DNA of 42,145 nt from an uncultured Opitutales bacterium (lineage in GTDB: Bacteria; Verrucomicrobiota; Verrucomicrobiia; Opitutales; UBA9783): NCBI GenBank assembly GCA_944389435.1, contig CALXMI010000037.1, positions 1-42,145 on the forward strand. The letters run 5' to 3'. The translations under genes and the position numbers were made by a program. The stretch's first letter is position 1. Every line of letters begins with the position of its first letter. Below are positions 15,465 to 35,748 of this stretch, piece after piece. The notes below the pieces were generated by a model, which saw nothing but the letters and a program-made list of their open reading frames with translations, ran no database searches and was not told where the DNA came from.

Positions 15465-15881
15465 TCACTTTAACAAACTAAATGATTTCGTGATTTGTTT
15501 AATTTGTAGTTCTTCACCAAATATTGCTATACCTATAGGATTAAGATCAAATAGACAACTTTCGGTAATTGTTTTTTTATATACATCAAATTTATTGTTC
15601 AACGCTTGCCCTTCTTCTGTGAATATAACTAAAACAATGTTGTTAGTTTCATTGGTTTTCTTTATCGTTGAACTCAATTTCAACATTTTACTTAGATTTG
15701 TTTTCAATACAATAACATTGCACCTGATTGCACTATGTATAAAATCTGTTTTATCACAAAGTAGGTGCGAATTGTAAATATCATCACAACACTTTGCTAA
15801 TTGCCCCATCAAAATAGACGCTATATTAGCCGACACTCCAGGAGAAAGTTTTTCATTTACAATAATTGCAACCCTATTCAC
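15465..15881 (-). CDS. DUF2000-like protein (PTH2-like fold)
   Basis: VAIIVNEKLSPGVSANIASIL...GIAIFG...ITKSFSLLK pattern; GTG start after ggaggt. Confidence 0.7.
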   Translation of the reverse strand: MNRVAIIVNEKLSPGVSANIASILMGQLAKCCDDIYNSHLLCDKTDFIHSAIRCNVIVLKTNLSKMLKLSSTIKKTNETNNIVLVIFTEEGQALNNKFDVYKKTITESCLFDLNPIGIAIFGEELQIKQITKSFSLLK

Positions 15882-16434: not shown

Positions 16435-17138
16435 TTTGCATCCTCCGTGAAACTGTTTATACAAGCTCTTCGTTCATTTGTTATAGTCAAATTATATTGT
16501 ATAGGGCTATCAAAACAATCCGCATCAACCAATGTTGTGTGAAACTCACCATTTTCACCGAATGGATCTATTCCGATAGATTTAAAGTGCTGATATGCTA
16601 ATCGATCATATTTTTCCCCAAGCCACTTTGTATCTATGGATGGATGGTTAATTGTAGTAATTATACTTTTAATTTTTCTGTTTTCTAGTTCCGTTATCAA
16701 ATCGTCATACGGAACTAGATACAAAGGGAAACATGGAATCATGCCGGCACTCTTACATAATTTGACTTGTATTATTATATTATCTAATGAATTCAAGTCA
16801 CCAAAAACGACATATTTTACTCCTTGCCGGCAGAAATCTCTGTATAACTTCGTGATTTTATCCCAACGCACCCACCATTTGTAATTAACATATATTATTG
16901 GGATGCGAAGTTTTTGAGCTTGTATATCTATTAAGCTTTGTTTTTGCTCATGAAACAACGATTCATTTTTATCGCTATCTAAACAATGGATTAAACTAAC
17001 AGCTTTACCAACCTCTAATGCTTTGGAAAGAGCAAGGCCAGAATCTTTTCCTCCACTGTACATAAAAACGAACGATTCATTTGTCGGTAAATTTCTATAT
17101 GATAAAAGATTTTCTTTATCAATGACAGTATAGTTCAA
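16431..17138 (-). CDS. Diphthine-ammonia ligase-like PP-loop ATPase (MJ0570/Dph6 family)
   Basis: YSGGKDS, VFGD, WLG, DPFGENGEFHT. Confidence 0.85.
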   Translation of the reverse strand: MNYTVIDKENLLSYRNLPTNESFVFMYSGGKDSGLALSKALEVGKAVSLIHCLDSDKNESLFHEQKQSLIDIQAQKLRIPIIYVNYKWWVRWDKITKLYRDFCRQGVKYVVFGDLNSLDNIIIQVKLCKSAGMIPCFPLYLVPYDDLITELENRKIKSIITTINHPSIDTKWLGEKYDRLAYQHFKSIGIDPFGENGEFHTTLVDADCFDSPIQYNLTITNERRACINSFTEDAK

Positions 17139-17166
17139 TAATTTACACCTCTTATCTGTTTAATAT

Positions 17167-18945
17167 TTATCTATAATTCTCTGCTTGCTTACTAAACATC
17201 TCATAGTATTTGCCTCGTAGAGAGATCAACTCATCATGTGTGCCAACTTCTTTGACCCCCCCATCACCTATCAAATAAATTCTATCAGCGTTTCTAATAG
17301 TAGAAAGGCGGTGTGCAATGATAATAGTTGTCGATAAATTGCTACTGTCGAAAATAAGTTTTGTCATCTCATATTCTGCAATGGGATCCAATGCAGCTGA
17401 AGGCTCATCAAATATTAATAGTCCAAAATCCCCAGATAAAAGTCTTGCGATCCCAATCTTTTGAATTTCTCCTCCGGATAACATAATTCCGCCTTCATCA
17501 AATTCTTTCGTTACATTAGTGTGAATGCTTGCATTGTTTTTGATTAAAACATTTTTAAGATCCGCTCGCATTATAATATCGTGAACTTTTTTTTCGTCGG
17601 AATTATCATATATACACAGATTATCGGCAAAGGACATTGCATAAACATTTGTGTTTTGAAAAGCTACACCTATTCTTCGTCTCAAATCATTTATATCGTA
17701 GTTACGTATATCAACATCATTTATACATATGCTTCCTTTGTTAACATCATAAAACCGCATTAATAACTTAACTATTGTTGATTTTCCTACTCCATTTTCA
17801 CCTACTATAGCAATTTTTTCACCAGGATTGATTTTTAAATTTAAGTGATTTATTCGGAAATTTGAATTTTGATAATTAAAGGAGATATTGTTAAACGAAA
17901 TTTTAAATGCGCCCGTTGGAGCCATAATACCGGCATTTTTTTCTGTTTCTATGTAAGATTTCAGGTCGAAAAAATTTTTAATTCTTTTCGCATACATACT
18001 TAGACGATTTGCGTCTTTAACATAATAAAACATTTCATTTAACGCATTTTTTAAAGTTTCTACTGCTACCATCATAGTTATGTAAGAACCCACTGTTGCA
18101 ATATTTCCGGTATAAATACCATGCGCAATATTTAGAATAACGAATGTTCGCGCAATGTAAAACGTGAAGGTTCCTGTCAAAGCCCACGGAATCATTTTAA
18201 AAGCGAATTTCTTTATAACATTGATTTTCCCATCTTGGGCAGCATTGTATCCTGCGAACAGATAATCTTTTATATTGGTGCTTTTTAAATCTGCGGCATA
18301 GTTATTAGTATAGAAAACTCTATGATAATAATTCAGTTTTCTATCATATGGAATTATCTCCGTATCTTTTTTCACATCATAATAGTTTGTTAATATATGC
18401 ATTATATTCTCAACGATAGTCCCGATTATGGTGACAATCACAGCGATGGGACTTAATGTCGCAATAATAGAAAGCATTGAGATAATGGTTATAATGGAAG
18501 ACACCATTCGATTAACCATGTTTTGAGCATCGGCAGCTTTGGTTGCATACTCACTAACGGCCCATGTGTAACTATCGAAATACTCTGGATCATCAATATA
18601 TCTGTAATCCGTATTTATTGCCTTACGATAAGCGTTAAATTTCAACTGTGCATCAATCTGTGGTAACATTCTATTTTTGCAGAACATATTAAAAATATCT
18701 TCATAAACGGGCTGAAACATCAAAATTAACTGCATTAATATCACAATTAAACATATATCTTTAAAGGAATATCCCCCCTGTAACATATTGATAATTGTGC
18801 TCGGTAGATAGACCCCCACTAATTGAGCAATAGGTATTATTATTCCCCAAAAAAACAAAGAAAAAACTACAAACATTTTTCCATATTTCCAATATGGTTT
18901 GTATAGCCATGCTATATTCTTAATTGATTTAATTATTGTTTTCAC
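17167..18945 (-). CDS. ABC exporter (TMD plus NBD)
   Basis: TM helices, GENGVGKS, LSGGE, DEP, AHRLST. Confidence 0.93.
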   Translation of the reverse strand: MKTIIKSIKNIAWLYKPYWKYGKMFVVFSLFFWGIIIPIAQLVGVYLPSTIINMLQGGYSFKDICLIVILMQLILMFQPVYEDIFNMFCKNRMLPQIDAQLKFNAYRKAINTDYRYIDDPEYFDSYTWAVSEYATKAADAQNMVNRMVSSIITIISMLSIIATLSPIAVIVTIIGTIVENIMHILTNYYDVKKDTEIIPYDRKLNYYHRVFYTNNYAADLKSTNIKDYLFAGYNAAQDGKINVIKKFAFKMIPWALTGTFTFYIARTFVILNIAHGIYTGNIATVGSYITMMVAVETLKNALNEMFYYVKDANRLSMYAKRIKNFFDLKSYIETEKNAGIMAPTGAFKISFNNISFNYQNSNFRINHLNLKINPGEKIAIVGENGVGKSTIVKLLMRFYDVNKGSICINDVDIRNYDINDLRRRIGVAFQNTNVYAMSFADNLCIYDNSDEKKVHDIIMRADLKNVLIKNNASIHTNVTKEFDEGGIMLSGGEIQKIGIARLLSGDFGLLIFDEPSAALDPIAEYEMTKLIFDSSNLSTTIIIAHRLSTIRNADRIYLIGDGGVKEVGTHDELISLRGKYYEMFSKQAENYR

Positions 18946-19786
18946 TTTCTGTCATTCCTTGGTAAAATAAAAAATTAGTAATCGCTATAAAATTATTCGT
19001 ATTACGGTAAGCAACTTCATAAACTTTTGTGTTTTTTAGAAGATTGTTTATATCTTGAAATAGCGTACACATATCTTTAGAATGTCTTACATTATTGATA
19101 ATTGTTTTAAAAGCTTCACTTTTATCTAGTTTGCGTACGAAATCATTTTCGTTGTTGTACTTAGGCAATATTACTACGTCTATATTGTGCACACTAGGAC
19201 TTGTCTTTGGGGGATAATAAATTGTTCGCATTGTTTCTCCATCAAAAGTCTCACCCACCATATTGCTTTCCATCAATTGATCAACATTTTCTCTCACGGA
19301 AATAGGCATATTAAATCCGATATACTTACTTTTAGAAATATAAACGCAATCGTCGTCTATGTATTCTGCGTGCAAAACCAACGACAAATAGCTTGTTAAT
19401 GTTGTTTTACCGGATTTTCTTTCTCCTATCAATAAAATATTTTTATTGTTTAATCTCACACAAGAACCATGAATAATTGTACAATTCAAAATATTTGCAT
19501 ACCAATCTTCTAAAGCCCCAATTAATTGAAAAGCAAAGTGCTTGTCAATTGCATTGCAAAAAATACGATAGGGTGCTTTGTCGATGCATTTTTTGAAGGT
19601 GTTTCCAGAAACTATTTCTAACGCAATATCATTATCCGTGCTTTCATTTTTTGTATCTAAAAAAGTTTTTTTATAAGTGGAAAGCAAAGTTTCAAACAAA
19701 CCAACATTTTTCAAATAAAGGTTTTTGTCTATATGTAGTTTTAATGTAGTGTCATTAATGGTCCGCTTAAAATAAAGCACGATCAT
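18929..19786 (-). CDS. HPr kinase-like P-loop kinase
   Basis: IHGSCV, GERKSGKTT, YIDDD. Confidence 0.75.
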   Translation of the reverse strand: MIVLYFKRTINDTTLKLHIDKNLYLKNVGLFETLLSTYKKTFLDTKNESTDNDIALEIVSGNTFKKCIDKAPYRIFCNAIDKHFAFQLIGALEDWYANILNCTIIHGSCVRLNNKNILLIGERKSGKTTLTSYLSLVLHAEYIDDDCVYISKSKYIGFNMPISVRENVDQLMESNMVGETFDGETMRTIYYPPKTSPSVHNIDVVILPKYNNENDFVRKLDKSEAFKTIINNVRHSKDMCTLFQDINNLLKNTKVYEVAYRNTNNFIAITNFLFYQGMTESENNN

Positions 19787-19798
19787 TCTCCTTATCTT

Positions 19799-20098
19799 TT
19801 AAACGTATTCTTTGATTAGTTCTTCGCAACAGAACTCTTTCAAAATTTTATTTACATCATCAAGCAAGCTTATATTTGTTTTTTGCGGTGCATATGTGGA
19901 TATAATTTTTTCACAAATATATTGGCTGCTGATATCTAAATTTTGTTCATTTGCCTCATTAAGAATATTCCAAATAAAAGAAGCGGATTGATTTAAAGAA
20001 ATTATACGCTTGCGTTGCTTGTCGTATGCAACAATCTCGTTCTCTATATTTTCTATTTCAAGTTTCGTTAATATCATTTCTTTGCCGTTAATTTTCAT
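19799..20098 (-). CDS. PqqD family RiPP recognition element (RRE)
   Basis: IVAYD...IISLNQSASFIWNIL...DDVNKILKEF...LI; about 100 aa, next to a radical SAM gene. Confidence 0.85.
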   Translation of the reverse strand: MKINGKEMILTKLEIENIENEIVAYDKQRKRIISLNQSASFIWNILNEANEQNLDISSQYICEKIISTYAPQKTNISLLDDVNKILKEFCCEELIKEYV

Positions 20099-20108
20099 AA
20101 TTATACTC

Positions 20109-21461
20109 CTAATTGCTTGTTAATTTATAAACAGAATTTTTTCCAAAAAGAACGTTGTCGACTAATTCAGCTTTCCAACCAAAGCATGTATTTCCACAAA
20201 GAATCTCGGTAAATACATACGACCAGTACTTTCGAATTAATTGACACTCATAATCCCTGTATTTTGTATCAAAGGCATTGTCTCTCACAACCTTTAGCGG
20301 ACAGCCGCCTTTGCAAAAACGATACGCTATACATCCTCTGCACTCATCAAAAGAATTCTTCACCACATCTAAATGTTGATCGGTATAGCTGTTATAAAAA
20401 TCCACCATATTGTCTTTTATTTCGGCAACGATGGTTTTGAACTGCTCGGCCTCAATACAGTTGATAATTTTTCTATCTGGCATCAGCCAAAAACATTCTG
20501 CAAATGTAGCTCCGCAACAGTATTCTGCAATAGTATTATTAAATATCGGTGTAGAAATATATAACTTGTAATTCTTTTCCTTTGCGTAGTTATGTAAGTT
20601 CACATAATGGTGAAAGAAATCGTATTTTTCTATGTTGTATTGATCTTTGTTGCCGTTTTTTAATGCACGCCCAGACGGAATTATTGGCATAATGCTCCAC
20701 TCGTTTATACCAGAACTGTTGTTTGCAATGTTATCACAAATTTGCTTGAGGTTTTCAAAGTTTTCATACCAAACAGTTGATCTTACCGTTAGTGAGCGTC
20801 CGCTTTGGCTAAAGTCTTGAAGAGTTTTTTCGACGACTGGAGATGAATTTGTTGTGTCAGAACATTTTCTGTTTCTGTTTTGCAAAAAAGATGTTCCATC
20901 ATACGACAACATAATTTTGTCAAAATGTTTAATTATAAATTTTCTCTGAGAGTTATTAAGCATTCCATTTGTCGTTAATTCAAAATAATAAGGCACAGAG
21001 CAGTTATCACAAAGATTTTTTATGGCACGTATTGACTCTTTAAACAACTCCCAATTAAATGTAGGCTCACCACCTCCCGTGAAAAAGAATCGCAAAGGTT
21101 CAGAATCATCGTTCTTATCAATAAATTGATATATTTTCCTCTTTTTAATTGCTTCTTTAACAAAAACGAGAATATCTTTCACTGACAGTAAGTCCTGATT
21201 TCCGCTGGTTGAAGAATAACTACAGTAATTACACCTTAATTGACAATTGTATGTCAAACATATACCAATCAAATTTATTGGCTTGTTTTTGGCAGACATT
21301 TTTGTTTTATCTAATTTATCTAAACAACTTTTTAATTCTTCATAATTATCAGTTTTTCTACAAATAGTATTTATTTCGGTTATTACGCTTTGTGCTGCGT
21401 CTTTGGGATAAAATATCAGTCTTTCCGAGTCGAAAATATAATTGCCTATATAGTGGTACAT
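20109..21461 (-). CDS. Radical SAM/SPASM peptide maturase 1
   Basis: CQLRCNYC, GGGEP, TTNG, SYDG; SPASM cysteines CCGA...NC...CRGCIAYRFCKGGCP...EC; ATG 21461 after ggagg. Confidence 0.9.
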   Translation of the reverse strand: MYHYIGNYIFDSERLIFYPKDAAQSVITEINTICRKTDNYEELKSCLDKLDKTKMSAKNKPINLIGICLTYNCQLRCNYCSYSSTSGNQDLLSVKDILVFVKEAIKKRKIYQFIDKNDDSEPLRFFFTGGGEPTFNWELFKESIRAIKNLCDNCSVPYYFELTTNGMLNNSQRKFIIKHFDKIMLSYDGTSFLQNRNRKCSDTTNSSPVVEKTLQDFSQSGRSLTVRSTVWYENFENLKQICDNIANNSSGINEWSIMPIIPSGRALKNGNKDQYNIEKYDFFHHYVNLHNYAKEKNYKLYISTPIFNNTIAEYCCGATFAECFWLMPDRKIINCIEAEQFKTIVAEIKDNMVDFYNSYTDQHLDVVKNSFDECRGCIAYRFCKGGCPLKVVRDNAFDTKYRDYECQLIRKYWSYVFTEILCGNTCFGWKAELVDNVLFGKNSVYKLTSN

Positions 21462-21480
21462 AAACGCATCTTCCTCCAAA

Positions 21481-21512
21481 TAGATGGTGTAAATAGTTCT
21501 AGACACCATTTA
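21481..21512 (-). promoter_or_regulatory. Hairpin between precursor P1 and the radical SAM RBS
   Basis: TAAATGGTGT/ACACCATCTA stem (one mismatch) with a 12-nt loop. Confidence 0.6.
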
Positions 21513-21535
21513 TATATATATTTCTTATGATAGCA

Positions 21536-21640
21536 CTATGAGTTCGTCTTGCCGGTAGGACAACACGATGCAGCGCGAGCCTCAATAGCACGAAGTTCTT
21601 CTTCGTCATACACTACGATAGCAGGTGTTTCGTATACCAT
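21536..21640 (-). CDS. Putative RiPP precursor peptide P1, 34 aa (not in ORF track)
   Basis: MVYETPAIVVYDEEELRAIEARAASCCPTGKTNS; RBS agaggaggg; YxxP leader motif; first gene of the rSAM/RRE operon. Confidence 0.88.
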   Translation of the reverse strand: MVYETPAIVVYDEEELRAIEARAASCCPTGKTNS

Positions 21641-21786
21641 AATTTCCCTCCTCTCTCATTCATTCTAATATGTTTTTGGTTCGCTAGAACTATTTACTGA
21701 GTTTAAACGATAAATAATACCGAGTTACAATCCATTAGCAAAATCCGTGCATTTTTAAAAACAATTGTAAGTTTGTTCCGTATCAG

Positions 21787-21815
21787 ATTATAATATAACA
21801 GTTTATATTTGTCAA
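21787..21815 (-). promoter_or_regulatory. Consensus sigma-A promoter for cluster 1
   Basis: TTGACA (21815-21810), 17-bp spacer, TATAAT (21792-21787). Confidence 0.85.
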
Positions 21816-21960
21816 TATTTCGTTTAGTGATTTTAAAAAATAAAATAAAAAAACGTCAAATTGTAGCCATTTTGTAGATAATCTCTTGATTTTTGATAGA
21901 ATAAATGTTATTATATTCAAAAAGCATCGTTTGGTTGTTTTAGGTTTTGCTTCTTAACAT

Positions 21961-21997
21961 AGAAAAGGAACCGTCGACCTTACGGCCGACGGTTCCT
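21961..21997 (-). terminator. Intrinsic terminator after P2
   Basis: 11-bp stem aggaaccgtcg/cgacggttcct followed by a short T run on the minus strand. Confidence 0.75.
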
Positions 21998-22009
21998 CAG
22001 AAAATTTTA

Positions 22010-22120
22010 TTATCTGAAATCTCCGGCGAAACATTGTCCGGATCTTGCAGCTGCTTGAATATGTTTTGCCAACTCTTTGGCACTCAATTCTACAACCACA
22101 GGCTTAACCCATTTTTTCAA
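22010..22120 (-). CDS. Putative RiPP precursor peptide P2, 36 aa (not in ORF track)
   Basis: MKKWVKPVVVELSAKELAKHIQAAARSGQCFAGDFR; TTG start overlaps the regulator TGA; RBS aagggggg; double TAA then terminator; leader resembles P1. Confidence 0.82.
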   Translation of the reverse strand: MKKWVKPVVVELSAKELAKHIQAAARSGQCFAGDFR

Positions 22121-23181
22121 CTAAATCCCCCCTTATCTTTATAATATTTTTCTAACATACCGCATAGGGTCTGAAAGTACTGTTTATTAATGCTGTAAAG
22201 AATGGTTCTCCCGCGATTTCGCGTCTTAAGCATACCAGCTTTTATCATTAAAGATAGATGGTAATAAGCATTTGTTCCAGTAAATCCGAATTCTTGCTCC
22301 AAATCTTTTATTGTTATTTCTTCTTTTTCATATATCAAGTTCAAAACCGAAACTCTGTTTGATTCAGAAATTGCGTTTCCGAAATTTTCAAGCTCTGGCA
22401 ATCTAAACTGAACAGTCAAATAATTGATATGTTCAATATAATCAATACCTAATAATATTACAACTTCATTTGAATAATAGTGTGTTTTAACACAATTCTT
22501 ATGATATAAGCAGAACGTGATGTAAATATCGTCAAAACAAGAAAAATCGCCTTTTTGATTTTTCGTTTGCATAAGTTGGTTTAAAACAATATCAAAATCA
22601 AAATTATCTTTAAGTTCACTCAATAATTTATGTTTTGCATCATACTTTTGAGATAACGCAAAACTTTTCTCCATCAACTCATATGACAGTTTGTGGATAA
22701 CCGTTTCAGGCTCTATAAAGAACGAATATAACGCACTTTTAATTTCACCGCTATATGTGGAATTTTTGATGAACTTATTAACATAGGTTATCGAGTCCTT
22801 ACATTTTATGACATCTTCTTCGCGAATATCCTTAAAGTAGAATCTAATAATATTCTCTTTTACCTTTTCGTGATTGGATAATTCTTCTTGCACCATAGAG
22901 AGATTATAATTTTCAAAAACAAAATGTGCTTTATATGGCTCGTAATAATATTTAGTTATTACATTCTTTTTGTCTTCTGTGAAATAGAAAAACAAAAGAA
23001 GCTCATCTGAAATCGGTGAAAATTCATTTAGTATTTTACTGTAATAGTCAGTATCTTCACTTGATTTACTATAGTTTATGAAATTTGTCAGACAATAATC
23101 CTTGTTAAAATTAAAAGCAAATAAGAAAAAAAGGTCGTATATAAAGCCGGGTTCATCAAGAAATTTAATATTTCTCATCAC
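22117..23181 (-). CDS. Transcriptional regulator: large N-terminal domain plus C-terminal ArsR-like wHTH
   Basis: NRVSVLNLI...ITIKDLEQEFGFTGTNAYYHLSLMIKAGML...GRTILYSIN. Confidence 0.85.
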   Translation of the reverse strand: MMRNIKFLDEPGFIYDLFFLFAFNFNKDYCLTNFINYSKSSEDTDYYSKILNEFSPISDELLLFFYFTEDKKNVITKYYYEPYKAHFVFENYNLSMVQEELSNHEKVKENIIRFYFKDIREEDVIKCKDSITYVNKFIKNSTYSGEIKSALYSFFIEPETVIHKLSYELMEKSFALSQKYDAKHKLLSELKDNFDFDIVLNQLMQTKNQKGDFSCFDDIYITFCLYHKNCVKTHYYSNEVVILLGIDYIEHINYLTVQFRLPELENFGNAISESNRVSVLNLIYEKEEITIKDLEQEFGFTGTNAYYHLSLMIKAGMLKTRNRGRTILYSINKQYFQTLCGMLEKYYKDKGGFS

Positions 23182-23203: not shown

Positions 23204-23232
23204 ATTGTAGCACACTTTTTTTATAAAATCAA
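23204..23232 (-). promoter_or_regulatory. Probable promoter of the regulator-P2 operon
   Basis: TTGATT, 17-bp spacer, extended -10 TGcTACAAT. Confidence 0.55.
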
Positions 23233-23300
23233 TTTATTTTTAGTGAACAACTAAAAATATAATAAAACCAATGTTTAAGAAACATACGAAAGGCATAAAT

Positions 23301-23609
23301 ATGATAGGGAAAAAGTTAAAGAGAAGCAGAATATCCGCAGGTTTAACCCAACAGCAGTTGGCAGAAAAAATTGGAATTAGCAGAAGTGCGGTTTCCAAAT
23401 ACGAATGTAACAAGTTGCGACCAAGCCTTAAAGTAAAGGCCAAACTTTGTTTGCGTTTGGATGATTGTGCCGATTTCTTATTAGCCTCCAACTCTCGAAA
23501 GCACGACAAAGTTTCCGTGTCCTCTCAGCCCCTTTCACCCGAAGAAATCAATAATATAGCAGAATTAATTAAAGAATGGACTTCGGAAGAATACCGTCTA
23601 TTTCCCTAA
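23301..23609 (+). CDS. XRE-family HTH regulator
   Basis: LKRSRISAGLTQQQLAEKIGISRSAVSKYE...P. Confidence 0.85.
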   Translation: MIGKKLKRSRISAGLTQQQLAEKIGISRSAVSKYECNKLRPSLKVKAKLCLRLDDCADFLLASNSRKHDKVSVSSQPLSPEEINNIAELIKEWTSEEYRLFP

Positions 23610-23640
23610 CAGAAAAAACAAGAAATATGCATTTTTAGAA

Positions 23641-23859
23641 TTGCAGCAATCATTAAAGAAATCTCTACCCAAAACAGTAACCGAAGCAATAGTTTTTCCT
23701 AACAATAATGCATATTGGATATGCCCAAATTGCAAATGCTCTTTTGAAAGAGAGTACCAATCGTATTGTGACAGATGTGGACAACGATTAAAGTGGATCG
23801 CTTTAAGAAAAGTTAAATATATACTAATAAAACCACCAAATAATAAAAAATATTTTTAG
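23641..23859 (+). CDS. Zinc-ribbon protein (possibly the C-terminal part of the XRE gene via a +1 shift)
   Basis: CPNC...CDRCGQRLKW; no clear RBS; frame open back across the XRE stop. Confidence 0.65.
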   Translation: MQQSLKKSLPKTVTEAIVFPNNNAYWICPNCKCSFEREYQSYCDRCGQRLKWIALRKVKYILIKPPNNKKYF

Positions 23860-23898
23860 TCATTGGCAAATTATAAATCGCAAATCAGGGAGAATATT

Positions 23899-24708
23899 AT
23901 GTTAACGATAGCCATACACGCACCATTCCAAACAAGCTTTACCATAAAAACCAACTGCAAAGAGTTAGCAAATGCAATTGTGTTAAGGCACGGTAAATAT
24001 GCAACTAAAAGTACAACTCAATCAGATATTACAATTATCGCTGAAAAAGAACAATCAGGTTATAGCATATACTTTAACGGCAATTCTGTAAAAACAAATG
24101 CTCCCTTAAAAAAAATAGAAGACATTATGTATGACAACCGTAAATATGAAGAAACAATATTTGCCGTTCACGGCGGTGCTGTAGAATACAATAATGGCGC
24201 ATATCTTGTTGTTGCCTCCACTACAAGCGGAAAAACCACCCTTACATCATATCTAGTTTCAAACGGTTTTGGATATATTACTGATGATTGCATACTTCTT
24301 GACCGTGAAAGCTTTAAAATATATCCGTTTACAACTCCCCTGCATTTGCGCAAAGGCGGTTATAACGCTCTGAAAGCTTTAGGTTGTGCCCCTGAAAGCT
24401 ATGATTTTTTAGACTCGGTTTCCATTAAAAGATATGTTTATACGCCTAATAATTCTGTTTCAAAACCGCTGCCGCTTAAAAAAATATTTTTTATCACAAG
24501 AACGGAAGATACGAATATGATAGAAGAAATGAATACCACAGAAAAAATAACCGCTCTTCTCAAATCGCCTATTACTGAATATGAAATTGGCGGCAGTTAT
24601 CTTTCGTTTATTTCCAAACTGTCCGCTATTCCCTGCAAAAGGCTTTATTACAGCAATATGGATTTTGTCGCCGAGGTAATTAAATATGAACAACAATCTT
24701 ATAATTAA
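23899..24708 (+). CDS. HPr kinase-like P-loop kinase 2
   Basis: VHGGAV, ASTTSGKTT, YITDD. Confidence 0.75.
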   Translation: MLTIAIHAPFQTSFTIKTNCKELANAIVLRHGKYATKSTTQSDITIIAEKEQSGYSIYFNGNSVKTNAPLKKIEDIMYDNRKYEETIFAVHGGAVEYNNGAYLVVASTTSGKTTLTSYLVSNGFGYITDDCILLDRESFKIYPFTTPLHLRKGGYNALKALGCAPESYDFLDSVSIKRYVYTPNNSVSKPLPLKKIFFITRTEDTNMIEEMNTTEKITALLKSPITEYEIGGSYLSFISKLSAIPCKRLYYSNMDFVAEVIKYEQQSYN

Positions 24709-25405
24709 AATTCTGCCTGCTGTTTTAAAAACCAAAGGACAGGCAGAACTCACTGTAACAGGGACGAGCATGGAACCGACTCTAATTGAAGGTGATTTGA
24801 TAACAATCATAAAGTGTGATAATTACACAATCGGCGATATTCTTGTTTTTGACTATAAAAACGAGGGGCTTCTGGTTCACAGATTACTAAAAACATCCAA
24901 CCGATACTTCTGTAAAGGCGATAATTCTTTTAGGCTTGAAGATATGCCTGCAGAAAACATTATTGGAAAAGTCACAGCTGTAAACGGAGTTCCAATTGCC
25001 GTTTGGCAAAAATGGAAAATGGATTTGTCTTATGCTGTCAATCGATCATTTGTTAAATCAAAATATGATATTACAAATACAATGCAGACAGATATATATA
25101 AACTGTATTCAGCCTTAATTTTAGGAAAAGAGGAAAACAAAATGAATTACAAGAAAACAGATAAAATGGACTTTATTCTTTCAGATGAAACTTCACTTGC
25201 CGTATTTGATCCGGAAAGCAACAATACATACTTTTTTGACGAAACCGGGATAGACATTCTAAATTGTCTTGACATCCCTTGTGATATTGAAATGCTTTTA
25301 GATATGCTTTGCAATATTTATTCAGCATCCCCTGAAGATATCAGGGCAGATGTTGAAGAATTCTTAGCAGATACAGTAACCAAAGGAATTGTTGAAATAG
25401 TATGA
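24686..25405 (+). CDS. S24/S26 signal peptidase-like domain fused to a C-terminal PqqD/RRE
   Basis: GTSMEPTL..GD, VHRL, KGDN; C-terminal 87 aa PqqD-like (FDPESNNTYFFDETGIDIL...DVEEFL...GIV). Confidence 0.85.
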   Translation: MNNNLIIKILPAVLKTKGQAELTVTGTSMEPTLIEGDLITIIKCDNYTIGDILVFDYKNEGLLVHRLLKTSNRYFCKGDNSFRLEDMPAENIIGKVTAVNGVPIAVWQKWKMDLSYAVNRSFVKSKYDITNTMQTDIYKLYSALILGKEENKMNYKKTDKMDFILSDETSLAVFDPESNNTYFFDETGIDILNCLDIPCDIEMLLDMLCNIYSASPEDIRADVEEFLADTVTKGIVEIV

Positions 25406-26448
25406 ACATTAAAACCGTTTATGTTGAAATAACTAATTTCTGCAACTTAAATTGTATCACTTGCTATAACCGATCGGGCTTAAACTGTCAAAGAACAGAA
25501 TTGTCATTTGAACAAATCGAGAATATTATCAAACTTTTTACGCCTTTAGGATTGAAAAGATTTTTATTATCAGGTGGAGAACCTACACTGCATTCCGAAT
25601 TTGACAAAATTCTTGATTTAATCGATAAATATCCAAAAATTAATTTTGGTATTGTTACTAACGGAACAAATCATAATAAAAAGCTATTAGAATGCCTTAA
25701 CTCAAGAGACAATTTAAAACTTCAGATAAGTCTTGACGGTTCCTGTGAAGAAATAAATTCCAAAACCCGCGGTATAGGCAATTTCAAAAAGACCTTAAGC
25801 TTTGCCAAACAAATACGCACCGCTCATAATATTCCTCTGCTTAAAATGGTCATATCACAAGGCAATTATGACGATGTAGAAAATTTCTGCAATTTAGCGA
25901 TTTCATTAGGCTTTACACCTGAACTTGCATTTATATACAAATCCGGAAACGGGTGTGACGAATGGGGCACTAAAGAGCTTACATCCATACAAAAATTAAA
26001 AATATTGAAACTTGTCGAGCGCATTAATAAAGAAAGAAATGCAGGTATATTTCTTCCAATCTGCACCACAAAATGTCCGTTAGCAGAAGGAATCAATGAA
26101 CTTTCTTTCTGTATTAAAGTAGACGGTTCAATTCAACCATGTCAATCCCTTTACAGTGAAAAATATACTGTCGGAAATGTTCTTTTCTTCGATAAAAAGC
26201 TATTTTTACAGAATATAAATAATATTTCCGATTTAGCAAGGCAGCGTTGTGAACAAGACTATGGCTGTGAAAAATGTATGCTGAATGACATTTGCGGCAG
26301 AGGATGCATGGCAGAAGCTGTAAATCTTCACGATAATCCATTTGCAAGTGACGGCAACTGCGAATATAGAAAACAACAATTTATTAACTTTAATCTAAAA
26401 GGAGGTATATCTGTACTTGAAAAAGAAGACAAAACATTCCACGCTTAG
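25402..26448 (+). CDS. Radical SAM/SPASM peptide maturase 2
   Basis: CNLNCITC, SGGEP, TNG, SLDG; SPASM CP...DGSIQPC...CEKCMLNDICGRGC...C. Confidence 0.9.
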   Translation: MNIKTVYVEITNFCNLNCITCYNRSGLNCQRTELSFEQIENIIKLFTPLGLKRFLLSGGEPTLHSEFDKILDLIDKYPKINFGIVTNGTNHNKKLLECLNSRDNLKLQISLDGSCEEINSKTRGIGNFKKTLSFAKQIRTAHNIPLLKMVISQGNYDDVENFCNLAISLGFTPELAFIYKSGNGCDEWGTKELTSIQKLKILKLVERINKERNAGIFLPICTTKCPLAEGINELSFCIKVDGSIQPCQSLYSEKYTVGNVLFFDKKLFLQNINNISDLARQRCEQDYGCEKCMLNDICGRGCMAEAVNLHDNPFASDGNCEYRKQQFINFNLKGGISVLEKEDKTFHA

Positions 26449-28228
26449 CAACAATTTATACATACTGAAACAAATACATATTGCAAGCCGCGGAAGAATA
26501 TTTTTTGAACTTTCGAGTATTATACTAAACACCGTTTCAAATATACTACTTGATGTTTATATGTTCAAATATATTATTAATGGTATTCAAAAGGGCTTAG
26601 ATTTTAAAAGACTTGTCGGTTTTATCCTGATTATTACGGCGTTTCATATTTTCACCGCTACCGTTGTCGACTATTTTTGGGAAAAATTCGCACCTGTCTC
26701 GAATCAAAAAATATATAGCCATATTCAAAAAAACTTGTTCGAAAAGGCCTCGTCTGTCGAGTTTGCCTGCTTTGAAGACCCTGACTTTTACGATAAATAT
26801 GTTAAAGCAATAAGCGAAGCATACAATAGAACCAATGAGGTTCTAAGGTCGTTGTGCGACATTGTATATTTTATTTTTAACGCTTTTGCTACCTCGTTTA
26901 TCATATTTACAATTGATCCCGTGCTGATAGTATTCGCGCTGATACCCTTTATTGTAAGTATTCTGTTCGGGAAAAGGCTTAACAAAGTGCGATACAATTA
27001 CACTATGGAAATGCAGGAAAAATCCAGAAAACGCGACTATGTAAAAAGGGTGTTTTACCTTGCCGACTACGCAAAGGAAATGCGGCTCACGAATATAAAC
27101 AGGGTTATGTTCAAAAAATTTTACGAGGCGATAAAGGAGCTTAAGGGGGTTATTAAAAAGCACGGGCTTAAGGTTGCGTTATTGGATTATTTGTTCATAG
27201 CGGTTAATGATATTATCGTTTACCTCGGCGCTATTCTATATTCCGCCTATAAAACCCTTGTTTCAAAAACAATGCTTTACGGCGACTGCGTGGTTGTTAT
27301 AAACGGAATAAACAATGTCGCGTGGTCACTGCGCAATATGGCTGATGTTTTTATTCAGTTTCAGAATCACTCGCTTTATATCGACAATCTGCGCTATTTC
27401 CTTGAATACAAGCCCGCAATTTATGAAAACAGGGAGGGACTCGACCCGCCCGATACCTGCGCGCTCACCCTTAAAAACGTAAGCTTTAAATACGCAGGTC
27501 AGGAAGATTATTCCCTTAAAAATATTAATTTCACAATAAAGCAGGGCGAAAAAATCGCCTTGGTCGGTCACAACGGCGCGGGTAAAACCACCCTTGTTAA
27601 GCTGTTAATGCGGCTTTACGATGTGACCGAGGGCGAGATACAGCTAAACGGCAGACCGATAAAGGAATACAAGCTTAAAGGCTACCGTAATCTGTTCTCG
27701 GTTGTGTTTCAGGATTTCAAGGTCTTCGCCGTATCGGTTTTGGAAAATATTTTGCTTAAAGCAGATATTACTAAGGAAGAAAAAAATCGCGCGGTAAGCG
27801 GTATGAAGGACGCGGGTATTTATGACAAGGTAATGTCCCTTGAAAAGGGCTATGAAACCGTGCTTACAAAGGAATTTGACGAAAACGGAGCGGTGCTTTC
27901 GGGCGGAGAGACCCAGAAAATCGCTATATCAAGGGTGTTTGCAAGGGACTGCCCCATCGCGATTTTAGACGAGCCTTCAAGTGCGCTTGACCCGCTGGCG
28001 GAGTACGCCATGTACGAGGCTATGATGAATGCGTGCAGGGACAAGGCGGTAATCTTTATTTCCCACAGGCTTTCCTCCGCGGTTTTGGCGGACAGGGTTT
28101 ACCTTATGGAAAAGGGAGAAATAATTGAAAGCGGCACCCACCGAGAGCTGCTCGAAAAGGGCGGCAAATACGCCGATATGTGGAGCAAGCAGGCGGAAAA
28201 ATACCGTAAAAAGGAGGAAGATGTATGA
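26417..28228 (+). CDS. ABC exporter subunit 1 (TMD plus NBD)
   Basis: GHNGAGKT, LSGGE, LDEP, SHRLS. Confidence 0.93.
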   Translation: MKKKTKHSTLSNNLYILKQIHIASRGRIFFELSSIILNTVSNILLDVYMFKYIINGIQKGLDFKRLVGFILIITAFHIFTATVVDYFWEKFAPVSNQKIYSHIQKNLFEKASSVEFACFEDPDFYDKYVKAISEAYNRTNEVLRSLCDIVYFIFNAFATSFIIFTIDPVLIVFALIPFIVSILFGKRLNKVRYNYTMEMQEKSRKRDYVKRVFYLADYAKEMRLTNINRVMFKKFYEAIKELKGVIKKHGLKVALLDYLFIAVNDIIVYLGAILYSAYKTLVSKTMLYGDCVVVINGINNVAWSLRNMADVFIQFQNHSLYIDNLRYFLEYKPAIYENREGLDPPDTCALTLKNVSFKYAGQEDYSLKNINFTIKQGEKIALVGHNGAGKTTLVKLLMRLYDVTEGEIQLNGRPIKEYKLKGYRNLFSVVFQDFKVFAVSVLENILLKADITKEEKNRAVSGMKDAGIYDKVMSLEKGYETVLTKEFDENGAVLSGGETQKIAISRVFARDCPIAILDEPSSALDPLAEYAMYEAMMNACRDKAVIFISHRLSSAVLADRVYLMEKGEIIESGTHRELLEKGGKYADMWSKQAEKYRKKEEDV

Positions 28229-30000
28229 AAGAAAAGGGCAGCGTACTGTTTATGATTAAGCAAGCCGTAAAATATGTTCCCTCCTTCTGTCTCTTTACAG
28301 TTGCGGAGGGTGTTGTTTGGGGCTGTATACACTCCTTTACAAGTACGCTCTTTATAAAGGCGCTGTTTGACAGAATAGAAAGCGGCGTCCCCTATTCTGA
28401 AATACTCCTGCTTGTCCTTGCTATGGCGGTTTTTCTTATTTCAGCCTACATATTCCACGAATGGTACTGGCAGTTTATAGAGCCGAAAGCGCGGCAGGAG
28501 CTGCACAAAAAAATGCAGGAGCAGCTATACAAAAAAGCGGCTTCCATAGACCTTGCCTGCTATGACCGCCCCGACTTTTACAACGACTTTGTCTGGGCGA
28601 TTAACGAGGCGGACTCAAGAACAATCGCAATATGTGAGGACATAGGCAAAATAATAAACCGCCTTATCACATCGGCGGTTATAATAGGCGTTTTATTCAC
28701 GATAGATTTGTGGATTGTGGCGGCGGTGCTTTTTTCGGTTGTCTTCAGCGTAGTTTTGCAAAGACTTATTACAAAAATTTATTTTAAGCGCGACAACGAG
28801 CTTAAACCCTTTCAACGCAGGGCTGAATATATAAGCAGGGTTCACTATCTTGCGGACTATGCAAAGGAAATCCGAATGAGCGAAGCCGAGGACTTACTCT
28901 TAAAGAATTTTGACACGGCTGTAGGAAGCAATATTTCAATAACCAAGTCCTACGGCAATAAGCTGTTTTTTCTGAATCTTACAAGAACCACCTTTACCGC
29001 CGTAATGTTTGACGCGGTTATTACAATACTGCTACTTTATAAGATGATGATAGAAAAATCCGTAACTCTCGGCGGATTTGCCGCCACATTCAGCGCTATG
29101 TGGAAGCTTTTTTGGACGCTTAATAATCTTATGGATTATTTTGCAAAATTCAAGGAGCATAAGCTTTATGCTAACAAGTTCAGGGTGTTTCTTAATTACG
29201 AGCCAACCGTGTGCGATAAGGAGGGTTGTACCGAATTAACCGCCCCGTTTAAGACCCTTGAGCTTAAAAATGTCTCCTTTGCCTACCCTGAAGCCGAAAA
29301 AAACATAATAAACGGCATAAATATGACCGTAAAGGCGGGGCAAAAAATCGCCCTTGTTGGCTACAACGGTGCGGGCAAATCAACCCTTGTAAAACTGCTT
29401 TTAAGACTATATGATGTTTCAGGCGGCGATATTTTTATAAACGGCAAGAGCATTAAGGATTACACCCTTTGCTCCTACCGAAACAAATTCGGTACCGTTT
29501 TTCAGGATTTTCAGCTCTACGCCGCCGATATTGCCGAAAACGTCCTTACCGACGAATATTCCGAAGAAGACCAGTCCCGCGTACTTGAAGCCCTTAAAAA
29601 CAGCGGATTTGAAGAAAGGCTTTCTTCCCTTAAGGAGGGTATTCACACACCGCTTACAAAGGAATTTGACCAAAGCGGAATTAACCTTTCGGGCGGCGAG
29701 GCGCAAAAAGTCGCAATATCAAGGGTGTTTGCAAAGGACTGCGAGATAGTTATTTTAGACGAGCCCTCAAGCGCACTCGACCCTATGACCGAATACGAAT
29801 TAAACAATACTCTGATGACCGCCCTTGACAAAACGGTTATAATAATTTCCCACCGCCTTTCTACGACCCGTATGGCGGACGTTATCTATATGCTTGAAAA
29901 CGGCGAGATTATTGAACAGGGCAGTCACGACGAGCTTATGCAAACGGGCGGCAAATACGCCGAAATGTTTTTAAAGCAGGCGGAAAAATATAATTTTTAG
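28225..30000 (+). CDS. ABC exporter subunit 2 (TMD plus NBD)
   Basis: GYNGAGKS, LSGGE, LDEP, SHRLST; ATGA overlap suggests a heterodimer. Confidence 0.93.
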   Translation: MKEKGSVLFMIKQAVKYVPSFCLFTVAEGVVWGCIHSFTSTLFIKALFDRIESGVPYSEILLLVLAMAVFLISAYIFHEWYWQFIEPKARQELHKKMQEQLYKKAASIDLACYDRPDFYNDFVWAINEADSRTIAICEDIGKIINRLITSAVIIGVLFTIDLWIVAAVLFSVVFSVVLQRLITKIYFKRDNELKPFQRRAEYISRVHYLADYAKEIRMSEAEDLLLKNFDTAVGSNISITKSYGNKLFFLNLTRTTFTAVMFDAVITILLLYKMMIEKSVTLGGFAATFSAMWKLFWTLNNLMDYFAKFKEHKLYANKFRVFLNYEPTVCDKEGCTELTAPFKTLELKNVSFAYPEAEKNIINGINMTVKAGQKIALVGYNGAGKSTLVKLLLRLYDVSGGDIFINGKSIKDYTLCSYRNKFGTVFQDFQLYAADIAENVLTDEYSEEDQSRVLEALKNSGFEERLSSLKEGIHTPLTKEFDQSGINLSGGEAQKVAISRVFAKDCEIVILDEPSSALDPMTEYELNNTLMTALDKTVIIISHRLSTTRMADVIYMLENGEIIEQGSHDELMQTGGKYAEMFLKQAEKYNF

Positions 30001-30013
30001 GAAGTGTACGAAT

Positions 30014-35669: not shown

Positions 35670-35748
35670 ACTATAAATTTGATAAGAGGAAAAATTGTGT
35701 TATGGACAATTTCATTCTTGTTGTTGTTGACAGTCAAACAGTAGAAAT

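Follow-up and report, generated by a model that had tools for sequence, protein, structure and literature searches.

Introduction

Radical SAM modified peptides are abundant in gut anaerobes, but few have a known role and their precursors are often missed. In streptococci, radical SAM peptide-maturation operons under SHP/Rgg control (RaS-RiPPs) sit next to a regulator gene that has a small peptide gene beside it, and there the signalling peptide (SHP) and the modified precursor are two different genes, while the regulator is Rgg-type with an N-terminal HTH (10.1101/467670; PMC9389541). In the ranthipeptide freyrasin, the precursor PapA carries six Cys-x3-Asp motifs and is modified by the radical SAM maturase PapB with the help of a PqqD-type recognition element, and coupling of a Cys to a C-terminal residue has been reported in engineered substrates (PMC12373016). 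A PapB-type ranthipeptide system is marked by a thioether from the Cys sulfur to a beta or gamma carbon. In agr-type and RRNPP-type signalling cassettes, the peptide gene is locked to its receptor or regulator gene, the active part of the peptide is hypervariable, and a receptor segment varies with it as exchanged alleles. ArsR/SmtB repressors are small single-domain winged-helix proteins of roughly 100 residues with an inducer site in or next to the winged helix, one of which, SdpR, belongs to a peptide-toxin-responsive immunity circuit. HprK-related P-loop proteins occur as tailoring enzymes in lasso peptide clusters and in the 'HPr-rel-A' and SynChlorMet cassettes of Haft.

Here, we analyzed a stretch of 42,145 nucleotides (the window; contig CALXMI010000037.1, assembly GCA_944389435.1, from an uncultured Opitutales bacterium) in which a 36-residue peptide gene, P2, lies directly behind an unusual DNA-binding regulator gene, REG, and is transcribed away from a set of peptide-modifying enzyme genes (cluster 2). 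A second set of such genes (cluster 1: rSAM1, PqqD1 and HprK1, with its own precursor P1) lies downstream of P2 on the same strand. An earlier note had described the coupling of P2 to REG and proposed that P2 is matured by cluster 2, carries a PapB-type Cx3D motif, and is sensed by the N-terminal domain of REG in a quorum-sensing-like circuit that could control cluster 1. We found that the sequence-level observation in that note is correct in every part, whereas its interpretation is only partly supported. In contrast to the streptococcal operons, a single peptide gene is attached to the regulator in this locus.

Results

Organization of the REG-P2 locus

The features of the locus are collected in Table 1. 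The start codon of P2 overlaps the stop codon of REG by 4 nt, as the plus strand reads TCAA at 22117-22120, which is TTGA on the minus strand. Six G on the minus strand (22127-22132) lie 6 nt before the TTG. The more likely start of REG, an ATG, sits 8 nt after AGGAGG.

Table 1. Coordinates of the features of the REG-P2 locus and its surroundings in the window
Position	Strand	Feature	Basis
21965-21998	-	Intrinsic-terminator-like hairpin that ends the REG-P2 unit; 15 pairs, 9 of them GC	Hairpin scan and folding energy
22010-22120	-	P2, 36-aa precursor peptide (MKKWVKPVVVELSAKELAKHIQAAARSGQCFAGDFR), TTG start; leader residues 1-25, ending A-A-A; predicted core residues 26-36, with C30 and C-terminal R36	ORF, orthologues, purifying selection, family of 194 representatives, core statistics
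22127-22134	-	Shine-Dalgarno-like purine/G run for P2, 6 nt before the TTG, inside the end of REG	Read from the sequence
22117-23181	-	REG, 354-aa regulator; N-terminal domain of about 250 residues of unknown fold; C-terminal ArsR-type winged helix (about residues 264-347); likely true start ATG at 23178	ORF, profile searches, structure models
22393-22630	-	Hypervariable segment of REG (about residues 183-262: one helix, a loop and a three-stranded sheet); differs between close relatives whose P2 cores differ	Pairwise comparisons; secondary structure from models
23204-23232	-	Promoter-like site for REG-P2 (TTGATT, 17 nt, TG-extended TACAAT)	Promoter scan, conservation
23235-23259	.	Perfect 10+5+10 palindrome just upstream of the -35 element, in the 90-nt divergent intergenic region; candidate operator	Repeat search; similar repeats in related loci L001, L049 and L002
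23271-23609	+	XRE-type HTH protein, first gene of cluster 2 in this window; present in only a few related loci	Profile searches, locus comparison
23641-23859	+	72-aa protein with two Cys-x-x-Cys pairs (reads like a zinc ribbon)	ORF; no Pfam match; homologues in related loci L001, L023 and L048-51
23863-24708	+	HprK-related P-loop protein (HprK2); recombination breakpoint at about 24150-24200	Profile search, identity comparison
24686-25405	+	Fusion of a signal-peptidase-I-like (S24/S26) domain with a PqqD-type peptide-recognition domain	Profile searches
25402-26448	+	Radical SAM peptide maturase rSAM2; best named relative MftC, below cut-off	Profile searches
26417-30000	+	Two ABC exporter genes (603 and 591 aa)	Pfam search
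30014-32247	+	Carrier-protein-domain protein (395 aa) and two ORFs matching the two halves of the nucleotidyltransferase family PF14907; accompany the HprK-like/peptidase-PqqD/rSAM trio in several loci	Pfam search, locus comparison
32271-35669		NACHT NTPase gene	Pfam search
35873-36817	-	REG2, 32%-identical paralogue of REG without a peptide gene, convergent with the NACHT NTPase gene	Profile search, alignment

To define the boundaries of the transcription unit, we examined the sequences flanking the pair. The hairpin after P2 has a predicted energy of -29.9 kcal/mol (z = -7.7), and a hairpin with z <= -4 follows P2 in 21 of 29 loci tested, whereas the other 8 do not reach this value. The promoter-like site matches only 9 of 12 consensus positions, and the scan of the window overall found no more sites than shuffles (23 against 22.6). 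However, the same extended motif precedes the regulator in 12 of 23 related loci and in 0 of 2000 shuffles. The palindrome, the only one in the promoter region of the regulator, has one exact copy in the window, and the only other match was one 2-mismatch hit inside the NACHT gene, against 0.56 expected. The genes from 23271 to 32247 abut or overlap, and the only other small ORF is the 72-aa ORF, which is present in only a few related loci; no other candidate substrate lies in cluster 2. In public RNA libraries, contigs of two RNA runs cover 23290-23529, within the XRE gene, and one run whose RNA label is a guess covers two 151-nt pieces of REG. None covers P2, although the lack of cover carries no meaning, as these are assembled contigs from which neither transcript ends nor levels can be read.

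P2 is a conserved coding gene linked to REG

We next aimed to establish whether P2 is a real gene. P2 orthologues are conserved at 47-78% identity, third codon positions vary most (entropy 0.97/0.76/1.48), and pN/pS is 0.42, a degree of conservation that is more than chance. The family comprises 194 representative clusters at E <= 0.001 and carries no name in Pfam, NCBIfam or the source records that we looked up. Within the taxon of the window, 0 of 20 other genomes of the family had a match, and a search of 401 genomes of the order gave only five weak partial matches (E 0.006-0.008), which we read as chance.

To explore the linkage between P2 and REG, we searched for small ORFs behind regulator homologues and, conversely, for regulators ahead of P2 homologues. 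Of 38 REG-centred loci, 15 carry the peptide within -10 to +26 nt of the REG stop, six of them with a 4-nt overlap like that of the window, while 23 lack any P2-like ORF. In all 20 metagenome loci found by searching with P2, a roughly 350-residue REG-like gene, or its 3' fragment, lies directly upstream; this is shown by similarity for 18, by a Pfam HTH plus a weak hhalign match (E 0.004) for one, and by size and position only for one. Four further divergent P2 copies, in genomes G475 and G639, follow 359-389-aa proteins with a C-terminal ArsR HTH. The 355-aa ORF at 13479-14546 of the window, which is the same size as REG, is not related to it.

P2 co-occurs with cluster 2 but not with cluster 1

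To test which enzymes travel with the pair, we compared gene content across related loci. All 9 of the 38 REG-centred loci that carry cluster 2 enzyme genes also carry P2, one of them frameshifted; absence of the peptide from such loci had been named beforehand as a result that would speak against the proposal. Of the 20 P2-centred loci, 8 show cluster 2 genes beside the pair. Among 301 genomes of one family, all 4 with the peptidase-PqqD fusion have P2, and 4 of the 5 with P2 have the fusion. In four loci, however, the pair has no cluster 2 genes on the flanking DNA on either side (4.9-6.9 kb in L016, L017 and L065; a 4.2-kb contig in L047). The rSAM1 gene of cluster 1 was found in none of the 38 regulator loci. 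Together, these results support that P2 belongs to cluster 2 and is very probably its substrate. The locus is cargo of a conjugative element, and comparison with individual relatives points to module exchange: P2, REG, XRE, the small Cys-rich ORF and the first third of HprK2 are 92-98% identical to L001 while the enzymes are 66-79% identical, and against L051 the pattern is the reverse.

Features of the peptide and the cluster 2 enzymes

To assess whether P2 fits the PapB-type reading, we compared the peptide family and both radical SAM enzymes with the PapB system. Neither enzyme reaches the PapB family cut-off (NF047865, 340 bits), as rSAM2 scores 62.6 bits and rSAM1 86.6 bits. The Cys-x3-Asp motif is present in the P2 of the window (C30-x3-D34), but Cx3[D/E] occurs in only 27 of 132 Arg-terminated family members, and the PapB argument of the earlier note is therefore not supported as stated. 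The family-wide features are instead an [A/V]-x-A leader end, an invariant C-terminal Arg and a single Cys, which lies 6 (94) or 5 (24) residues before the terminal Arg in 118 of the 130 Arg-terminated peptides that have a Cys. The leader most often ends [A/V]-x-A before R-S, with A-x-A|RS (55) and V-x-A|RS (36) being the top counts among 149 representatives.

Cluster 2 encodes a radical SAM domain together with a PqqD-type peptide-binding domain: PF04055 matches rSAM2 at E 1.4e-21, and PF05402 matches residues 173-236 of the fusion protein at E 1.5e-11. The fusion scores 51.0 bits against a cut-off of 51.85 for archaeal-type signal peptidase I. The best named match of rSAM2, MftC, gives 107.8 bits against the TIGR03962 cut-off of 265, and rSAM2 reaches no curated family cut-off, such that its chemistry is a guess. 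Matches to the HPr-rel-A and SynChlorMet families are all far below cut-off (TIGR04352, HprK_rel_A, 29.9 against 200; TIGR04353, PqqD_rel_X, 26.9 against 35; ScmC 19 against 125).

REG joins an ArsR-type winged helix to an N-domain without a recognized relative

To better characterize REG, we combined profile and fold searches. PF12840 matches 26 of 26 REG family members, and NF033788 matches REG at E 5e-12, although REG scores below every curated cut-off, with a whole-protein score of 45.4 against 55 for NF033788 and of 33.3 against 100 for the SdpR family. A Foldseek search with the whole REG model found only ArsR proteins, with probability 1.0 to CadC, NolR, CzrA and HlyU, and these hits fall on the C-terminus only. 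The metal-binding Cys pair of ArsR was not seen in the helix-turn-helix when we read the sequence. The N-domain is confidently modelled (pLDDT 93, pTM 0.91) but has no Pfam relative, and its best PDB match has E 1.6. An Atlas search gave a lead to DUF5937 at 0.87, below the trust level of that search, and PF19361 did not appear in the table for the REG of the window or among the 25 families listed for the 26 members at E <= 1; no TPR family was listed there either. A complex prediction of REG with P2 from family alignments scored 0.00, a result that speaks neither for nor against binding.

A segment of REG varies together with the P2 core

We then asked whether any part of REG varies with the P2 core. 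In close REG pairs (at least 80% identity) with different P2 cores, substitutions are 2.5-5.4 times denser in residues 196-262 than elsewhere, and an unbiased 40-residue scan puts the densest window at residues 173-227 in 6 of 6 pairs (permutation p <= 0.0075 in 4). In the same-core contrast, the window or L001 against L049 at 93% identity, the ratio is 1.1-1.3, with the densest window elsewhere and not significant. This pattern rests on three independent clades with differing cores and one same-core control, the segment was first noticed in one of those clades, and pairs within a clade are not independent. Moreover, synonymous divergence is also raised in the segment (for example 0.20 against 0.04) and pN/pS stays below 1. 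The pattern is therefore exchange of old alleles, and physical linkage to P2 (about 300 nt away) could produce it without any functional tie. In L062 against L065, the variable REG segment and the P2 core change together while the winged helix between them stays nearly identical, with 1-2 mismatches per 100 nt.

Discussion

Our analysis shows that P2 is a conserved coding gene, that it ends a short transcription unit beginning at REG, and that the pair co-occurs with the HprK-like, peptidase-PqqD and rSAM2 genes; modification, cleavage, export, DNA binding and sensing are all inferred. The explanation that we favor, though only tentatively, is that REG and P2 form a two-gene operon that supplies both the pathway regulator and the substrate of the divergently transcribed cluster 2. 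In this view, the PqqD domain would bind the conserved P2 leader (the W-K-K-P and E-L...I-K motifs), rSAM2 would make one cross-link from the single Cys (C30) to a position in the last six residues, which could be D34 in this allele or the invariant C-terminal Arg region, the signal-peptidase-like domain would cut after the [A/V]-x-A leader end to release an 11-residue Arg...Arg peptide, and the ABC pair would export it. REG would bind the palindrome in the divergent promoter region through its winged helix, and its N-domain, specifically the variable sheet segment at about residues 183-262, would recognize the P2-derived peptide, so that the operon would feed back on itself and on cluster 2, as autoinduction or as producer self-sensing. 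The peptide might act between cells as a signal or as an antimicrobial. The sensing proposed in the earlier note thus remains a hypothesis, resting on gene linkage and co-variation rather than on binding, expression or chemistry data. We found no support for control of cluster 1, which is not conserved next to the pair and has its own perfect consensus promoter, with the cluster 1 promoter region at 21787-21860, and no second copy of the palindrome lies near it.

An almost equally possible alternative is that REG is an ordinary cluster-situated regulator responding to something other than P2, such as a metabolite, redox state, envelope stress or the cargo of the exporter, and that P2, still the substrate of cluster 2, sits in the regulator's operon so that precursor supply is set apart from enzyme supply. 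This is consistent with the 23 of 38 REG loci that lack P2, several of which place REG beside ABC exporter pairs instead (L003, L012, L014, L021, L025), so the family can work without P2, as well as with the absence of a peptide gene at REG2 and with the raised synonymous divergence of the variable segment, which fits allele exchange plus linkage. On the other hand, every P2 seen is attached to a REG-type gene, even where REG has diverged beyond BLAST recognition, the segment and core change together in L062 against L065, and the same-core control shows no clustering of substitutions.

It is improbable that P2 acts unmodified inside the cell as a small partner of REG, for example an anti-repressor or co-repressor made in fixed ratio by coupled translation, rather than as a substrate of the radical SAM cluster. 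The 4-nt overlap in the window and in 6 of 15 genome loci, and a linkage to REG that is tighter than that to the enzymes, would fit this reading. However, P2 has the layout of a modified-peptide precursor, with a conserved leader and a variable Cys-containing tail, it co-occurs with the PqqD/rSAM trio, cluster 2 contains no other candidate substrate, and its leader end matches the fused signal-peptidase-like domain. Maturation of P2 by cluster 1 under control of REG-P2 is very unlikely, because despite the position of cluster 1 after P2 on the minus strand, a faint resemblance of the P1 and P2 leaders (hhalign E 0.019 over 26 columns) and the higher PapB score of rSAM1, rSAM1 has no counterpart above 22% identity in any of the 58 related loci, a strong terminator and a perfect consensus promoter separate P2 from cluster 1, cluster 1 has its own precursor, the region after P2 is different in every lineage, and the palindrome is not repeated near cluster 1.

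A further-reaching possibility, which we consider doubtful but not excluded, is that REG-P2 is a new kind of peptide signalling cassette. The signal would be an 11-residue peptide cyclised by a radical SAM enzyme and released by a signal-peptidase-like domain fused to the recognition element, the cytoplasmic receptor would join a previously unseen fold to an ArsR winged helix, and receptor segment and peptide core would exist as matched, exchangeable alleles (pherotypes), spread among gut Clostridia on conjugative elements. If the matched-allele pattern holds, this would be a peptide communication or self-recognition system of a new build moving on conjugative elements in the gut microbiome. 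The locus also defines an unnamed precursor family that can be found simply by looking behind one type of regulator, links it to an unusual enzyme set (a signal-peptidase-like domain fused to a recognition element, an HprK-like protein and a short radical SAM enzyme), and offers a concrete candidate for a regulator that reads the product of its own cluster through a domain of unknown fold. Literature searches, which covered open-access text but not supplements, where genome-mining tables might list such clusters, found no description of this peptide family or of a regulator-precursor operon of this build, and the only paper mentioning DUF5937 is unrelated.

The locus shares with HPr-rel-A and SynChlorMet cassettes the joint occurrence of an HprK-related P-loop protein, a PqqD-like protein, an uncharacterised nucleotidyltransferase and radical SAM enzymes, but at scores far below the family cut-offs. 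With freyrasin it shares a radical SAM maturase and a PqqD-type recognition element. A Cys-x3-Asp motif is present in the tail of the P2 of the window, but only 27 of 132 Arg-terminated family members keep Cx3[D/E], P2 has one motif where PapA has six, and its recognition domain is fused to a signal-peptidase-like domain. REG shares the winged-helix fold and sequence of ArsR/SmtB repressors but carries a separate 250-residue N-domain that those small proteins lack. As in agr-type and RRNPP-type cassettes, the peptide gene is locked to the adjacent regulator gene, the predicted active part of the peptide is hypervariable, and a regulator segment varies with it as exchanged alleles, whereas no TPR domain, membrane histidine kinase or AgrB-like gene was found, and the peptide, in a signalling role that is so far hypothetical, would be matured by a radical SAM enzyme. 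Finally, as in the streptococcal RaS-RiPP operons, a radical SAM peptide-maturation operon sits next to a regulator gene with a small peptide gene beside it, but the sensor domain of REG has no known relative, and its HTH is C-terminal and ArsR-type rather than N-terminal as in Rgg.

Organization of the regulator-P2 locus

In order to place the P2 peptide gene in its genomic context, we first examined the reading frames and signals that surround it (see table). The gene for P2 starts at a TTG whose last base pair begins the TGA of the upstream regulator gene, and a run of six G lies 6 nt before this TTG. P2 is followed by a 15-pair hairpin with 9 GC pairs, for which folding gave -29.9 kcal/mol and z = -7.7. 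Beyond the hairpin lies a perfect TTGACA-17-TATAAT promoter that serves a second precursor, P1 (34 aa, with two adjacent Cys), and the genes of cluster 1, which encode a 466-aa radical SAM/SPASM enzyme (rSAM1), PqqD1, HprK1 and an ABC exporter together with diphthamide-synthase-like, prephenate-dehydratase-like and DUF2000 proteins. Upstream of the regulator, only about 90 nt separate it from the first gene of cluster 2 on the other strand, and this stretch holds an extended -10 promoter-like site and a perfect 10+5+10 palindrome.

Cluster 2 encodes an XRE-type protein, a 72-aa protein with two Cys-x-x-Cys pairs, an HprK-related P-loop protein, a signal-peptidase-like domain fused to PqqD, a 348-aa radical SAM enzyme (rSAM2), two ABC exporters, a carrier-domain protein, two overlapping ORFs that match the first and second halves of the nucleotidyltransferase family PF14907, and a 1132-aa NACHT NTPase. 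The two-ORF arrangement of PF14907 recurs in related loci and is therefore probably not a sequencing frameshift. Convergent with the NACHT gene is a 32%-identical paralogue of the regulator (REG2), and the same NACHT gene neighbors a regulator-type gene in four other loci (L032, L033, L034 and L047). Because the genes from the start of cluster 2 to the end of the nucleotidyltransferase ORFs abut or overlap, cluster 2 has no room for another precursor.

Coordinates of features in the window and in two related loci
Feature	Sequence	Position	Strand
DUF3854 protein	Window	10955-12097	
Cluster 1	Window	15465-21815	
P1 precursor	Window	21536-21640	
Consensus promoter of P1 and cluster 1	Window	21815-21787	
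Hairpin following P2	Window	21998-21965	
P2 precursor, 36 aa	Window	22010-22120	-
Start/stop overlap (+ strand reads TCAA)	Window	22117-22120	
Regulator, 354 aa	Window	22117-23181	-
Palindrome, 10+5+10	Window	23235-23259	
Abutting or overlapping genes of cluster 2	Window	23271-32247	+
HprK-like gene	Window	23863-24708	+
Recombination breakpoint inside the HprK-like gene	Window	24150-24200	
Two ORFs matching PF14907	Window	31107-32247	+
NACHT NTPase and REG2	Window	32271-36817	
Serine resolvase	Window	37013-37654	
RepA_N replication initiator	Window	39080-40228	
TraG/VirD4-type (type IV) coupling protein	Window	40260-42140	
P2 copy, regulator remnant, second P2 copy	Locus L057	1919-2385	
Protein of five XRE-type HTH repeats	Locus L072	5560-7116	

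P2 is a conserved gene

To determine whether P2 is a genuine gene, we searched for homologues of the regulator, of which at least 221 are full-length, and a scan of one genome per species gave 38 loci. In 15 of these loci a P2-like ORF starts between -10 and +26 nt from the regulator's stop, and one of the 15 (L023) is frameshifted. Fourteen orthologues could be easily aligned, with W4, P7, L17, A25, S27 and R36 invariant. Third codon positions vary most (0.97/0.76/1.48 bits), and pN/pS is 0.42 over 153 pairs. A profile search of 1.84 billion representatives found 194 at E <= 0.001. Six of eight orthologues looked up are present in public gene calls, none of the 26 cluster members carries a name, and neither Pfam nor NCBIfam has a model for the peptide.

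P2 is found behind a regulator gene

As the 38 loci had been found through the regulator, we repeated the search from the peptide side, which gave 20 metagenome loci. Sixteen of these show the regulator directly upstream by tblastn, and two show its last 30 or 83 residues at the contig edge. The two remaining, distant loci (L055 and L057) have a 353- and a 368-aa gene in that place. The L055 protein has an ArsR HTH near its C-terminus and aligns end to end with the family, though weakly (E 0.004, probability 9%), whereas the L057 protein has no Pfam match and was accepted only by its position, its size and its visible likeness to that of L055. L057 also holds a tandem duplication, in which a P2 copy is followed by a 73-aa remnant of the regulator's winged helix and by a second P2 copy with a different core. 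Four more divergent peptides, in two genomes reached through the enzymes, also follow 359-389-aa proteins with a C-terminal ArsR-type HTH. We found no P2 without such a gene upstream. The converse does not hold, as 23 of the 38 regulator loci have no peptide, and several of these place the regulator beside ABC exporter pairs. In L013 and L016 the order is regulator, P2 and then a second regulator paralogue in tandem.

We next asked whether the boundaries of the two-gene unit are conserved. A hairpin with z <= -4 follows P2 in 21 of 29 loci, with unrelated stem sequences, and an extended -10 promoter motif (TTGATTTT, a 9-15-nt spacer, then a TG-extended -10 element) precedes the regulator in 12 of 23 loci and in 0 of 2000 shuffles. 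Therefore, the two-gene unit is conserved as a unit. The 4-nt overlap itself is seen in 6 of the 15 genome loci, while the others have short spacers, and so co-transcription is general but strict translational coupling is not.

The pair co-occurs with the enzymes of cluster 2

To explore which enzymes belong with P2, we examined the neighbors of the pair. In the regulator-centered set, cluster 2 enzyme genes lie beside the pair in 9 loci: seven have the full HprK-like / peptidase-PqqD / rSAM2 trio lying divergently, one is without a peptidase-PqqD match, and one has the trio 3.8 kb downstream. All 9 have P2, and none of the 23 peptide-less loci has the trio. In the peptide-centered set, 8 of 20 loci show the trio or the part of it that the contig holds. 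In locus L072, where all genes are on one strand, a 518-aa protein made of five XRE-type HTH repeats lies between the regulator-P2 pair and the enzyme genes.

Among 301 genomes of the family of G401 (the genome holding L016), the peptidase-PqqD fusion is in 4 and P2 in 5, with 4 shared, counts to which we attach no test because kin are not independent. The fifth P2 genome (G703) has its matches on high-numbered contigs (C162 to C519), with regulator matches starting as close as 14-106 bases to a contig start, and we therefore take it to be fragmented. In four loci the pair has no trio on the DNA examined on either side (4.9-6.9 kb in L016, L017 and L065; a 4.2-kb contig in L047). G401 gave five regulator matches and has two P2 genes but one fusion gene, which suggests maturation in trans there. 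Cluster 1 is not found in any related locus, its rSAM1 has no counterpart there, and the DNA after P2 differs from lineage to lineage and often holds other radical SAM genes.

Peptide features and inferred maturation

We then analyzed the peptide family for features that bear on its chemistry. Of the best 150 representatives, 149 are at most 90 aa long; of these, 132 end in Arg, and 130 of the 132 have a Cys in the last 16 residues. The Cys lies 6 residues before the Arg in 94 and 5 residues before it in 24. Cx3[D/E] occurs in 27 of 132, and the residue four after the Cys is most often D (23), then V, F, Y, G or N (20 down to 12 each). The leader most often ends [A/V]-x-A followed by R-S (A-x-A|RS in 55 and V-x-A|RS in 36, with other residues before the Ser in the rest). 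Five closely related loci (L062-L066) have identical P2 leaders, but their cores differ at up to four of the six positions between the Cys and the terminal Arg.

Small residues at -1 and -3 direct cleavage by signal peptidase I, and the fused peptidase of cluster 2 scores 51.0 bits against a cut-off of 51.85 for archaeal-type signal peptidase I. From this we infer cleavage after A25 and an 11-residue product, residues 26-36. rSAM2 reaches no curated cut-off, its best matches being MftC (107.8 against 265), StsB (87.1 against 625) and PapB (62.6 against 340). The PapB-type reading that the earlier note drew from the Cx3D motif is thus one possibility for this allele only. PapB links Cys to Asp or Glu and, in engineered peptides, to a C-terminal residue (PMC12373016), which by analogy alone makes a Cys-to-C-terminus ring thinkable for a family defined by a fixed Cys-to-terminus distance.

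Predicted structure of the regulator

To better characterize the regulator, we modeled it with AlphaFold2 using 26 sequences (pLDDT 89). Residues 264-347 are predicted to form an ArsR-type winged helix, with Foldseek hits to CadC, NolR, CzrA and HlyU. The N-domain, modeled alone at pLDDT 93 and pTM 0.91, has about a dozen helices plus a small sheet formed by residues 3-7, 217-223, 230-234 and 238-244. Its best PDB match has E 1.6 and TM below 0.2, and it has no Pfam family.

Exchange and co-variation of regulator and peptide alleles

That the regulator senses P2 is a hypothesis without direct evidence, and prediction of the complex gave no verdict, but two comparative observations bear on it. 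First, the window is 92-98% identical to the related locus L001 from 21807 to about 24200, a stretch covering P2, the regulator, XRE, the small Cys-rich ORF and the first third of the HprK-like gene, and 66-79% identical beyond that. Against the related locus L051 the pattern is reversed, with 63-78% identity up to about 24100 and 94-100% from 24109 to 30097. Nearly identical enzymes therefore serve different peptide alleles, and the peptide travels with the regulator. The recombination breakpoint shared by these two independent comparisons lies inside the HprK-like gene, such that the first third of the HprK-like protein travels with P2 and the regulator and the rest with the enzymes; that first third may be the part that meets the peptide.

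Second, differences between close regulators cluster when, and only when, the P2 cores differ. For L062 against L065, which differ by one core residue, 8 of 14 regulator differences fall in residues 196-262. For the L007/L008/L060/L061 clade and for L011 against L059, the rate in that segment is 2.5-4.6 times the rest, whereas for the window or L001 against L049 (identical core, 93% identity) the ratio is 1.1-1.3. Because the segment had been chosen after seeing the first clade, we reran the test without a preset segment. The densest 40-residue window starts at residues 173-227 in all six different-core pairs (permutation p 0.0005-0.0075 in four; 0.053 and 0.104 in two), while in the same-core pairs it starts at residue 119 (p 0.14-0.30). 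Synonymous divergence is also higher in the segment and pN/pS stays at 0.17-0.36, indicating old alleles moved by recombination, not fresh positive selection. In L062 against L065 the winged helix between the segment and P2 is almost unchanged, and a single long imported tract is therefore unlikely for that pair. The pattern is what matched receptor-signal alleles would look like, but only three clades and one control are available, and linkage remains a sufficient explanation.

Mobile setting of the locus

The contig carries a serine resolvase, a RepA_N initiator and a type IV coupling protein, which lie within 37013-42140, as well as a DUF3854 protein. The clusters are therefore cargo of a conjugative element or plasmid, which is what the whole 42-kb contig looks like. 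This fits the absence of P2 from the 20 other genomes of the window's family and from 400 sampled genomes of its order, and it also fits the mosaic structure. The assembly holding the window (0.95 Mb) has 87.6% estimated completeness, and the contig may be mobile DNA or may have been binned with the wrong genome.

Interpretation

Together, these results confirm the earlier note's observation of a P2 gene overlapping the end of a regulator gene in a separate unit transcribed away from cluster 2, and show that the arrangement is general. The note's interpretation is partly supported. What the analysis shows is that P2 is a conserved gene, that it lies behind a regulator-type gene in a conserved two-gene unit and that the pair co-occurs with cluster 2 enzyme genes; its maturation and cleavage, and any binding by the regulator, are inferred from sequence. 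P2 is very probably the substrate of cluster 2, as the note proposed. The proposal that the regulator senses P2 remains tentative but now has a specific, testable footing. Control of cluster 1 and the PapB-type assignment are not supported. The system belongs with known kinds, namely a radical SAM peptide cluster and a cluster-situated regulator, but three of its parts, the peptide family, the regulator's N-domain and the obligate regulator-precursor operon, are not described in the sources we could search.
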